DNA of 17,097 nucleotides, from the UHGV virus genome UHGV-1592266, one strand, 5' to 3'. This stretch comes from a virus. Position numbers and translations under genes: made by a program. The notes below the pieces were generated by a model. The model saw nothing but the letters and a program-made list of their open reading frames with translations, was not told where the DNA came from and made no database searches. Shown in pieces: positions 8,193 to 8,963 of this stretch (position 1 is its first letter; the number at the start of each line of letters is the position of its first letter).

Positions 8193-8525
8193 TCAATCGT
8201 AATAAGCTGGAATTGATTTTCCGCGTTGCTTCTGGCGGCCTGAGCAAGTCACACCCATTTCACTGCGTGGCTTGCTGTACCATGTGCGCTGATTCTTGCG
8301 CTCAATACGTTGCAGGTTGCTTTCAATCTGTTCGTGGTATTCAGCTAGCACCGTAAGGTCTATAGGATTCAGTGCGCTTTCTACTCGTGATTTCGGTTTG
8401 CGATTCAGCGAGAGAATAGGGCGGTTAACTGGTTTTGCGCTTACCCCAACCAACAGGGGATTTGCTGCTTTCCATTGAGCCTGTTTCTCTGCGCGACGTT
8501 CGCGGCGGCGTGTTTGTGCATCCAT
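8193..8525 (-). CDS. N: antitermination protein N, lambda type
   Basis: MDAQTRRRERRAEKQAQWKAANPLLVGVSAKPVNRPILSLNRKPKSRVESALNPIDLTVLAEYH... matches lambda N, including the arginine-rich motif. Only the last ~25 residues differ from my memory of lambda N. Lambda-type boxB sites are present at both nut sites. Confidence 0.95.
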   Translation of the reverse strand: MDAQTRRRERRAEKQAQWKAANPLLVGVSAKPVNRPILSLNRKPKSRVESALNPIDLTVLAEYHEQIESNLQRIERKNQRTWYSKPRSEMGVTCSGRQKQRGKSIPAYYD

Positions 8526-8793
8526 CTGGATTCTCCTGTCAGTTAGCTTTGGTGGTGTGGTGGCTGGTAGTCTAGCTCCAGCTTGTTGAGTCTCATTCGG
8601 AGGGGTATAACCGGCACCCCAGCGATTTTTCCATGCGACAACGTGCGCGTTATGGCGGCCTTATCGCCCGCGGCTCCCCATCTCGTCCACGCTATTGCTA
8701 GCGTTGGGAGCGCTTCACCGCTCAACAGTAGGTAAGCACTTGCCAGTGACTAGCTGGCTTCACCACACCCCAAAGCCTTCTGCTTTGAATGCT
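8526..8793 (-). promoter_or_regulatory. N leader (5' UTR) with a long closing helix and several internal hairpins; larger than the lambda leader
   Basis: On the minus-strand RNA, GGUGUGGUG (8761-8769) pairs with CACCACACC (8554-8562), enclosing ~190 nt. Internal hairpins include ACGCUA-GCAA-UAGCGU (GNRA loop), GAGCG-GUGAAG-CGCUC, GGGGU-N9-ACCCC and GGCG-N7-CGCC. A long-range GUUGAG/CUCAAC pairing is also possible. The N SD (AGGAG) follows at 8532-8536. Confidence 0.5.
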
Positions 8794-8824
8794 GCCCTTC
8801 TTCAGGGCTTAATTTTTAAGAGCA
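8794..8824 (-). promoter_or_regulatory. nutL (boxA plus boxB)
   Basis: The minus strand reads TGCTCTTAA AAATTAA GCCCTGAAGAAGGGC. BoxB at 8794-8808 is the lambda nutL boxB. BoxA at 8816-8824 differs at its first base from the CGCTCTTA of nutR. Confidence 0.9.
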
Positions 8825-8868
8825 TCACCTTCATGGTGGTTAGCGCGTCCTGCTGATGGCTTAAAATT

Positions 8869-8936
8869 ACAAGAAAGATTGTATACTGTAAACAAGAAAT
8901 ATTGTAAAAAGAGGCGTGAAAAACAAACTCCGTTGT
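8869..8936 (-). promoter_or_regulatory. oL operators (three ACAA-N6-TTGT sites) and pL
   Basis: ACAAGAAAGATTGT at 8869-8882, ACAAGAAATATTGT at 8892-8905 and ACAAACTCCGTTGT at 8923-8936 all fit the 434 operator consensus. A candidate pL on the minus strand is TTTACA-N17-TATACA spanning the two proximal operators; the exact hexamers are uncertain. Confidence 0.75.
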
Positions 8937-8963
8937 TTTTAAACGGAAAATAGTTTGTTTTTT
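8921..8963 (-). terminator. candidate t-imm terminator ending the PRM transcript (hairpin flanked by T-runs on both strands)
   Basis: AAACAAACT (8921-8929) pairs with AGTTTGTTT (8952-8960), and inner CCGTT (8930-8934) pairs with AACGG (8942-8946). U-rich tracts follow in both directions. It lies 24 nt after the hex-locus stop and overlaps the distal oL site. Confidence 0.45.

Follow-up and report, generated by a model that had tools for sequence, protein, structure and literature searches.

The DNA analysed here (the window) is a stretch of 17,097 nucleotides (nt) from the virus genome UHGV-1592266, which represents the early region of a P22-like, lambdoid phage and is closest to phages Bas106, HK633, and Sf101. 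The antitermination gene N, encoding 110 amino acids, lies on the minus strand of the window, and the early-left (pL) transcript is read on that strand. The element examined in this study is the 268-nt minus-strand segment at 8793–8526, which is the exact interval from the nutL boxB hairpin to the ATG of N. Judging from its flanks, this segment is the leader RNA of the pL transcript of a lambdoid phage, extending from nutL to the ribosome-binding site of N. An earlier note, made from the letters of the window, had described lambda-like borders around a replaced, GC-rich interior of about twice the length in lambda, and each part of this description was borne out. Identity with lambda runs from boxB to GGCTTTGGGGTGTG on the 5' side and from CACACCACCAAAGC to the N ATG on the 3' side, and the interval between these two borders could not be aligned with lambda. 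The leader measures 268 nt compared with 158 nt in lambda, the stem–loop that it contains 231 nt compared with 121 nt, and the distal core of that stem–loop 198 nt compared with 90 nt. The GC content of the core is 57–61%, compared with 31–54% in the neighbouring sequence. A scan of both strands of the region gave neither an internal promoter nor an internal terminator. The N protein itself was 93–100% identical to lambda-type N across about 110 loci.

The two borders of the leader pair with each other over a long range. The 9-base-pair (bp) closing helix proposed in the earlier note was recovered, and it extends past a bulged A into a second, 7-bp helix. The complete closing helix therefore consists of a lower helix (GCUUUGG/CCAAAGC), the bulged A, and an upper helix (GGUGUGGUG/CACCACACC), and it was seen in the minimum free energy (MFE), centroid, and consensus folds (Table 1). 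The whole leader had a folding z score of −4.1 on either strand, whereas the core alone had a z score of −0.57, indicating that the folding signal is that of the long-range closing helix. Loci for comparison were gathered in three ways, with the coding sequence of lambda-type N, the 3' flank of the leader, or the 3' arm of the helix as the key; as the 3' arm used in the third scan was that of the allele studied here, which we named type B, the frequency of this version of the upper helix is inflated. Of the 37 groups obtained by clustering, one (L180) fell in a coding region and was a false positive, so that 36 core types remained. The leader types all folded into one common architecture. The upper helix had 19 different sequences among the about 36 core types, every one of them complementary (for example, GTAGCGCG/CGCGTTAC, GATTGGATG/CATCCAATC, ACAGGCGT/GCGCCTGT, and GGTAAGAG/CTCTTACC). 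Compensatory changes from G-C to U-A were found in the helix of wild lambda-type leaders, and in 11 copies of type B the outermost pair of the lower helix was changed from G-C to A-U. The closing helix is conserved and covaries across lambdoid phages, and the check for covariation among homologous leaders that had been suggested came out in favour of this helix and of one interior hairpin described below.

By its position and by the sequence identity at the base of the helix, the closing helix is the RNase III stem of the lambda N leader, as the earlier note had surmised from the borders; over the helix arms, lambda and the window are identical between boxB and GGGGTGTG and again between CACACC and the ATG. 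The N leader of lambda undergoes RNase III processing (Steege et al. 1987, as cited in PMC5371410). N represses its own translation through nutL, and the sequence lying between has a high degree of structure (PMC5725501); the effect on N translation in lambda goes back to Wilson 1997 and 2002, as cited in PMC5725501. In the hairpin abutting the 3' arm of the closing helix, the reference lambda sequence (L001) is mismatched at two places (G-G and G-A) where three wild lambda-type leaders (L043, L044, and L177) have standard pairs.

The type B leader was 100% identical in Sf6, Sf101, HK544, HK446, HK633, mEp213, mEp043, and Bas106, and was present in 60 of 5426 complete E. coli genomes. The curated records of HK544 and Sf6 mark nutL and N and leave the interval empty, the sole annotation of the leader being that in Bas106. 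BLAST searches with the core against phages, E. coli genomes, and plasmids returned only copies of N-type leaders at 98–100% identity, and on these grounds we rejected a repeat, an element of the enterobacterial repetitive intergenic consensus or repetitive extragenic palindromic type (ERIC/REP), and a fragment of a known gene as identities of the core. Prophage anti-small RNAs and Pas small RNAs were likewise set aside, as their sites differ according to the literature. The type B core had no sequence similarity to the lambda core or to any other core type. It is, by this comparison, a replacement of the lambda core and not an expansion of it, and one of about 36 unrelated cores held in a constant frame. 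In a sample of about 214 loci keyed on the 3' flank and N, the short type D, whose 43-nt core is the shortest of the common ones, occurred at 80 loci, the lambda type at 48, type B at 34, type E at 20, and type C (the CL707 type) at 17, together with several rarer types; the shortest cores measure about 30–45 nt.

The same frame was found ahead of other N analogues and behind other boxB types, including P22 gene 24 (MTVITYG...), where it follows GCGCTGACAAAGCGC, and in a prophage of Intestinirhabdus with an N of only 32% identity. Type B occurred in at least five nutL/N contexts at 93–100% identity, and this near-identical recurrence indicates that the leader is exchanged between contexts as a unit, presumably through recombination within the conserved arms. 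When viral contigs were scanned specifically for type B, no new divergent haplotypes emerged. In the literature, we found no description of an interchangeable set of cores or of an origin of the frame from transfer RNA (tRNA), the older lambda literature being mostly outside the search. In E. coli P276M (L004) and at L132, the prophages are decayed, and a deletion with one end within the type B core has joined the core to remnants of virion genes. At L119, the core (type T07) contains AGCGUGAAAAAGCGC, nearly a second copy of the nutL boxB of that phage (GCGCUGAAAAAGCGC). Leaders and N genes identical or nearly identical to those of lambda were also encountered in assemblies of unrelated organisms, among them Shewanella, Chromatium, Paenibacillus, Capnocytophaga, Desulfovibrio, and Kitasatospora (L008–L036); many of these are on short, low-coverage contigs, and they look like contamination with lambda control DNA.

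The interior might encode a small protein, namely the product of an open reading frame (ORF) of 60 codons at 8725–8543 on the minus strand, which corresponds to the "hypothetical protein" of Bas106. The frame stays open in the window and was annotated once, by an automatic pipeline; it starts with TTG without a Shine-Dalgarno sequence and is unannotated in the curated records of Sf6 and HK544. Among relatives, it is broken by a premature stop in L244 and by a frameshift in L106 (L189 has a comparable one-base deletion), and the divergent copies have 6–8 nonsynonymous versus 2–3 synonymous codon changes. The translated ORF matched no PHROG or Pfam family, and tblastn gave no divergent homologue. 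The stop, the frameshift, the nonsynonymous excess, and the lack of a family match led us to reject the protein-coding reading, in agreement with the judgement of the earlier note. As far as sequence can exclude coding, the core is non-coding; we regard a functional peptide here as extremely improbable, and the "hypothetical protein" called at this leader in some phage records as a spurious annotation.

Several relatives of the leader resemble tRNAs. The core of L172, which has the same flanks, was called a tRNA by ARAGORN and scored 34.8 bits on the tRNA model RF00005 (gathering score 29). Its acceptor stem is the upper helix (GGGUGUG/CACACC), and its D- and T-arms are good, whereas its anticodon stem is poor. 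Another group, class I (L122, L247, L337, L339, and others), has the hairpin GCUC-AACGGC-GAGC after an AA linker and a canonical T-arm, GCUGG-UUCGACU-CCAGC, abutting CACCACACC. Class I relatives with 75–87% identity were found in 92 phage records, none of which annotates them meaningfully. The class I element of Pantoea phage PdC23 (L344) scored 37.4 bits on RF00005; its anticodon loop contains an insert of 45 nt, and its variable arm is long. An alignment of ten class I sequences gave a cloverleaf with covariation at 11 of its 34 pairs. T-arms of canonical form, taken as stems of 4 bp or more enclosing UUCRANN, were present in 5 of the 37 clusters, compared with a mean of 0.06 and a maximum of 2 in shuffled sequences. 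In Salmonella phage gmqsjt-1 (L345, locus 250–629), a class I element lies outside the nutL/N frame, about 100 nt upstream of two ordinary tRNA genes that score 62 and 57 bits on RF00005.

In a further group, class II (L039, L116, L243, L258, L301, L317, and L320), which has at least eight different middles, the loop at the D position, with GCUGA(U), and the loop at the T position, with (A)UCAGC, are complementary over 5–6 bases in eight core types with different middles. These loops could replace the tRNA elbow by a kissing contact. In L239, the second loop is GUCAGU, which is still pairable through two G-U pairs. From these comparisons, the leader frame seems to have arisen from a tRNA. The literature search gave no paper describing an N leader that resembles a tRNA. 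The conserved ACCA that follows the upper helix was considered as a tRNA 3' end and dropped, being two bases out of register with the acceptor alignment.

Type B shares parts of the class I element. It is identical to L122 over the first 20 nt (GCTTTGGGGTGTGGTGAAGC), and its 3' end shares AAGCTGG ... CCAGCCACCACACCACCAAAGC, which covers the T-stem and the whole 3' arm. As in the class I elements of L122, L339, and L344, the acceptor UGUGGUG/CACCACA lies inside GGUGUGGUG/CACCACACC, the AA linker is present, and the stem of the last hairpin, GCUGG/CCAGC, is at the same place. Type B differs from class I in its T-loop (AGCUAGACUA instead of UUCGACU), in its D-arm, and in having about 150 nt in place of the anticodon and variable arms. 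Neither the T-position loop nor the D-position loop (CUAGUCA) is canonical. ARAGORN found no tRNA and no transfer-messenger RNA in the window, and RF00005 had no tRNA match there even at expectation values (E) up to 10. With R1, a covariance model of class I built in this analysis, the best score of type B was 6.2 bits (E 0.07, from a search of 451 nt without filters), and only the T-arm and the 3' strand of the acceptor aligned. The Rfam scan suggested by the earlier note returned no family for the whole window at gathering scores, and at E up to 10 gave only two chance-level matches in 8400–8950. As the formal tests with the tRNA models and R1 fail, type B is best regarded as a derived relative of the tRNA-shaped leader element and not as a tRNA-like RNA itself.

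The interior of the core was examined in sixty full copies of type B, which gave 15 haplotypes, three of them (L244, L288, and L270) divergent at 12–16 positions. The 6-bp hairpin with a GCAA tetraloop singled out in the earlier note was present, and two adjacent pairs of it are altered on both sides (G-C to A-U and C-G to U-A), while its loop remains of the GNRA type (GCAA to GUAA) in the divergent haplotypes. In the tested structure, 2 pairs were changed on both sides, a number reached by 7 of 500 shuffles, and 3 cells were changed on both sides, a number reached by none of the 500; no slid control had any both-sided change. Pairing was preserved by 8 of the 9 substitutions that fell in paired columns in the three divergent haplotypes. 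Among other cores, type C differs from its 85% relative L182 by two compensatory pairs, with no disruptive change among about 15 differences, and the D-position stems of types E and F differ by one compensatory pair. At least one interior hairpin, that with the GNRA loop, appears to be under structural selection.

The rest of the fold was less distinct. The further GC-rich hairpins that had been described were indeed predicted, but at no more than chance level, and the nested multi-branch fold gained no thermodynamic support beyond composition, as judged from the z score of the core. Of the long-range GUUGAG/CUCAAC helix, both sequences are present (8726–8721 and 8590–8585), but neither the MFE fold nor the consensus fold contains the pairing; by our own estimate, chance alone would give about one such match in 200 nt, and since the sequences are invariant in all copies, the pairing is neither supported nor rejected. 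The loops of the first and last hairpins are complementary over 5 bp, UAGUC at 8752–8748 with GACUA at 8572–8568 (P about 0.04 in loop shuffles). In the divergent haplotypes, none of the 10 bases of this proposed contact varies, compared with 4 of 7 other loop positions (chance about 0.015 by our own calculation). A kissing contact UAGUC–GACUA between the D- and T-position loops of type B is suggested by this complementarity, although the evidence is suggestive only.

These substitutions also bear on whether the core might be a functionless passenger, such as a decayed tRNA pseudogene or a captured DNA fragment, in which only the closing helix matters and near identity reflects recent spread. 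Such a passenger would account for the unrelated cores of the different types, for a folding energy at the level of shuffled sequences, for the 99–100% identity of most copies, and for a density of single-nucleotide polymorphisms in the type B core (3.5 per 100 nt) that is not below that of the helix arms. It is poorly compatible with the compensatory changes, namely the two pairs in type B, where the GNRA loop is also retained, and those in type C and class I; the predominance of pairing-neutral substitutions and the invariance of the 10 putative kissing bases also stand against it. We consider a mere passenger improbable.

Table 1. Features of the type B leader and its flanks, in the order of transcription
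Feature	Positions in the window	Strand	Remarks
nutL boxA (TGCTCTTAA)	8816..8824	minus	Matches lambda nutL boxA in place and sequence class; HK544 and CL707 share the stretch and have it annotated as boxA
nutL boxB hairpin (GCCCTGAAGAAGGGC)	8794..8808	minus	Same as lambda boxB; hairpin also detected in the promoter/terminator scan
Lower helix, 5' arm (GCUUUGG)	8770..8776	minus	8776–8770 paired with 8552–8546; near-invariant across types, only the first two positions varying
Upper helix, 5' arm (GGUGUGGUG)	8761..8769	minus	8769–8761 paired with 8562–8554; equivalent of the tRNA acceptor 5' strand; aligns to the acceptor stem in L344 and L172
First hairpin (GCCAG-CUAGUCA-CUGGC)	8742..8758	minus	D-arm position, after the AA linker; in MFE, centroid, and consensus folds; stem invariant
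Helix GCUCCC/GGGAGC around the GNRA hairpin	8673..8711	minus	8711–8706 with 8678–8673; outer helix, wobble changes only
GNRA hairpin (ACGCUA-GCAA-UAGCGU)	8689..8704	minus	6 bp; two compensatory pairs
Hairpin GGGGU-GCCGGUUAU-ACCCC	8602..8620	minus	In centroid and consensus folds; weak, as two single-locus variants break a pair
Last hairpin (GCUGG-AGCUAGACUA-CCAGC)	8563..8582	minus	T-arm position, abutting the 3' arm of the upper helix; stem as in the L122 T-arm; aligns to the R1 T-arm
Upper helix, 3' arm (CACCACACC)	8554..8562	minus	Partner of 8769–8761, from the fold and cross-type comparison
Bulged A between upper and lower helix	8553	minus	Kept in 35 of 36 core types
Lower helix, 3' arm (CCAAAGC)	8546..8552	minus	Partner of 8776–8770, from the fold and cross-type comparison
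Shine-Dalgarno GGAG of N	8533..8536	minus	Same as lambda
N antitermination gene, 110 amino acids	8193..8525	minus	Listed ORF; annotated as N in Sf6, HK544, and Bas106

The reading that we favour, with moderate confidence, is that type B is a long allele of the lambda N-leader stem–loop, acting in cis as a self-folding scaffold that forms an RNase III site and links nutL with the translation of N. Going by the homology with lambda, the closing helix of type B would form as the RNA emerges from the polymerase, helped by the N/Nus complex that sits at nutL, immediately 5' of the helix; helix formation assisted by the Nus complex has been proposed for the leaders of ribosomal RNA (rRNA) operons (PMC4807359) and for N (PMC5725501). 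The helix would bring nutL beside the ribosome-binding site of N, allowing N to repress its own translation. The same helix would be a substrate for RNase III, and the cut would separate nutL from the N reading frame, leading to more N synthesis; the cuts in lambda presumably lie near the bulged A, where type B has the same sequence. Because the core is variable yet locally constrained in structure, its role may be that of a compact, self-folding nucleus for the long-range helix; it could be a tRNA relic, possibly held by the UAGUC–GACUA contact, and its sequence and length would otherwise be free to vary. For the sensor or protein-binding platform that the earlier note had also considered, no evidence pointed in that direction.

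Several points weigh against the cis-acting scaffold. For type B, both cleavage by RNase III and the effect on N translation are carried over from lambda by homology. Taken by itself, the 198-nt core folds at the level of chance, with 50 of 200 shuffles folding equally well (the cores of five other types were likewise unremarkable against shuffles), and the MFE structure of the leader has a frequency of 0.0006 in the ensemble. The GNRA hairpin is the only interior helix with compensatory support, at a depth of three divergent haplotypes; the tested structure was selected after the substitutions had been seen, and RNAalifold favours a different fold that accommodates these transitions by wobble pairing. 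Finally, the retention and exchange of so many unrelated cores has no obvious explanation if the core is a scaffold and nothing more.

The variety and exchange of cores would be better explained than by a cis scaffold if the stem–loop mainly yielded a stable trans-acting RNA, that is, if RNase III released a tRNA relative of about 215 nt that binds a host or phage factor. Such an RNA might, for example, counter tRNA-targeting defences as a tRNA mimic or decoy, or might take up a tRNA-binding protein as a sponge, with the different cores corresponding to different targets or to an arms race. Tallying with this, tRNA-shaped relatives occupy exactly the same frame, T-arms are enriched, class II and type B have loop–loop complementarity that mimics the elbow, about 36 unrelated cores have been swapped between different nutL/N modules at near identity, structure is conserved within cores (type C and the type B GNRA hairpin), and the RNA belongs to the first transcript made after infection or induction. 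However, type B fails all tRNA tests and its core is without a thermodynamic signal, the shortest cores are hardly large enough for a function of their own, and neither a stable RNA species nor a target or partner is on record. We hold a trans-acting product, the main rival of the cis-acting reading, to be rather unlikely. More broadly, all lambdoid N-leader stem–loops, including the lambda RNase III site, might form one tRNA-derived family excised by RNase III, whose cores act in trans, for example as tRNA mimics or decoys against host factors that bind or cleave tRNA; type B would then be a member of about 215 nt in which a kissing loop replaces the elbow. This broader proposal is speculative, and we attach a rather low probability to it.

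Under the favoured reading, that of a cis-acting long allele, the closest known system is the lambda N leader itself. The two share the position in the pL transcript, boxB, the lower helix, the bulged A, the first six pairs of the upper helix, the Shine-Dalgarno region, the start of N, and the overall architecture. They differ in the distal core, which is of dissimilar sequence as well as length, and in the upper helix, which is one pair longer in type B; moreover, processing and regulation have been tested in lambda, whereas type B is known from its sequence. The leaders of rRNA operons resemble the N leader in that a nut/boxA site, which loads Nus factors, immediately precedes the 5' arm of a long-range helix, which is an RNase III substrate enclosing a structured RNA (PMC4807359, PMC5725501). 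This likeness is one of analogy, not homology: the enclosed RNA is the conserved 16S rRNA in the one case and a variable RNA of 30–250 nt in the other, and the known output in lambda is translational control of the downstream gene. Signals of the R1.1 type in phage T7 are likewise hairpins of an early transcript with an internal bulge that are processed by the RNase III of the host (PMC8708148), but they are short, irregular hairpins without a large distal domain and are uncoupled from a nut site.

The lambda N leader is the textbook case of RNase III processing combined with self-control by N, and it has been studied in one allele only. About 36 natural cores in one helix provide ready-made natural swaps with which the role of the distal leader can be probed. 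The link to tRNA suggests an origin for this regulatory stem, in view of the upper helix as an acceptor stem, the several cores that score as tRNAs, and the putative kissing-loop elbows of others; it also raises the possibility that stable tRNA-like RNAs are made very early in infection.

Some minor features were observed around the leader and in the collected loci. Upstream of pL, at 8928–8948 of the window (minus strand), there is a terminator-like hairpin with a T-run behind it, in the place where HK544 and CL707 have the Timm terminator annotated. At three loci (L057, L108, and L343), an additional ORF of 45 codons (MTMNNEALKEMIAKLLEDARRIQEVEPNAGTQSRIDEAMKLLKGE) with its own GGAG is situated between the closing helix and the start of N. 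The 17-mer CACCACACCACCAAAGC also occurred, without the leader frame, inside apparent repeated coding sequences (...CTCTACACCACACCACCAAAGC...) of environmental viral contigs (L240, L249, L250, L255, L259, L261, L267, L290, and L296), which are unrelated to the element.

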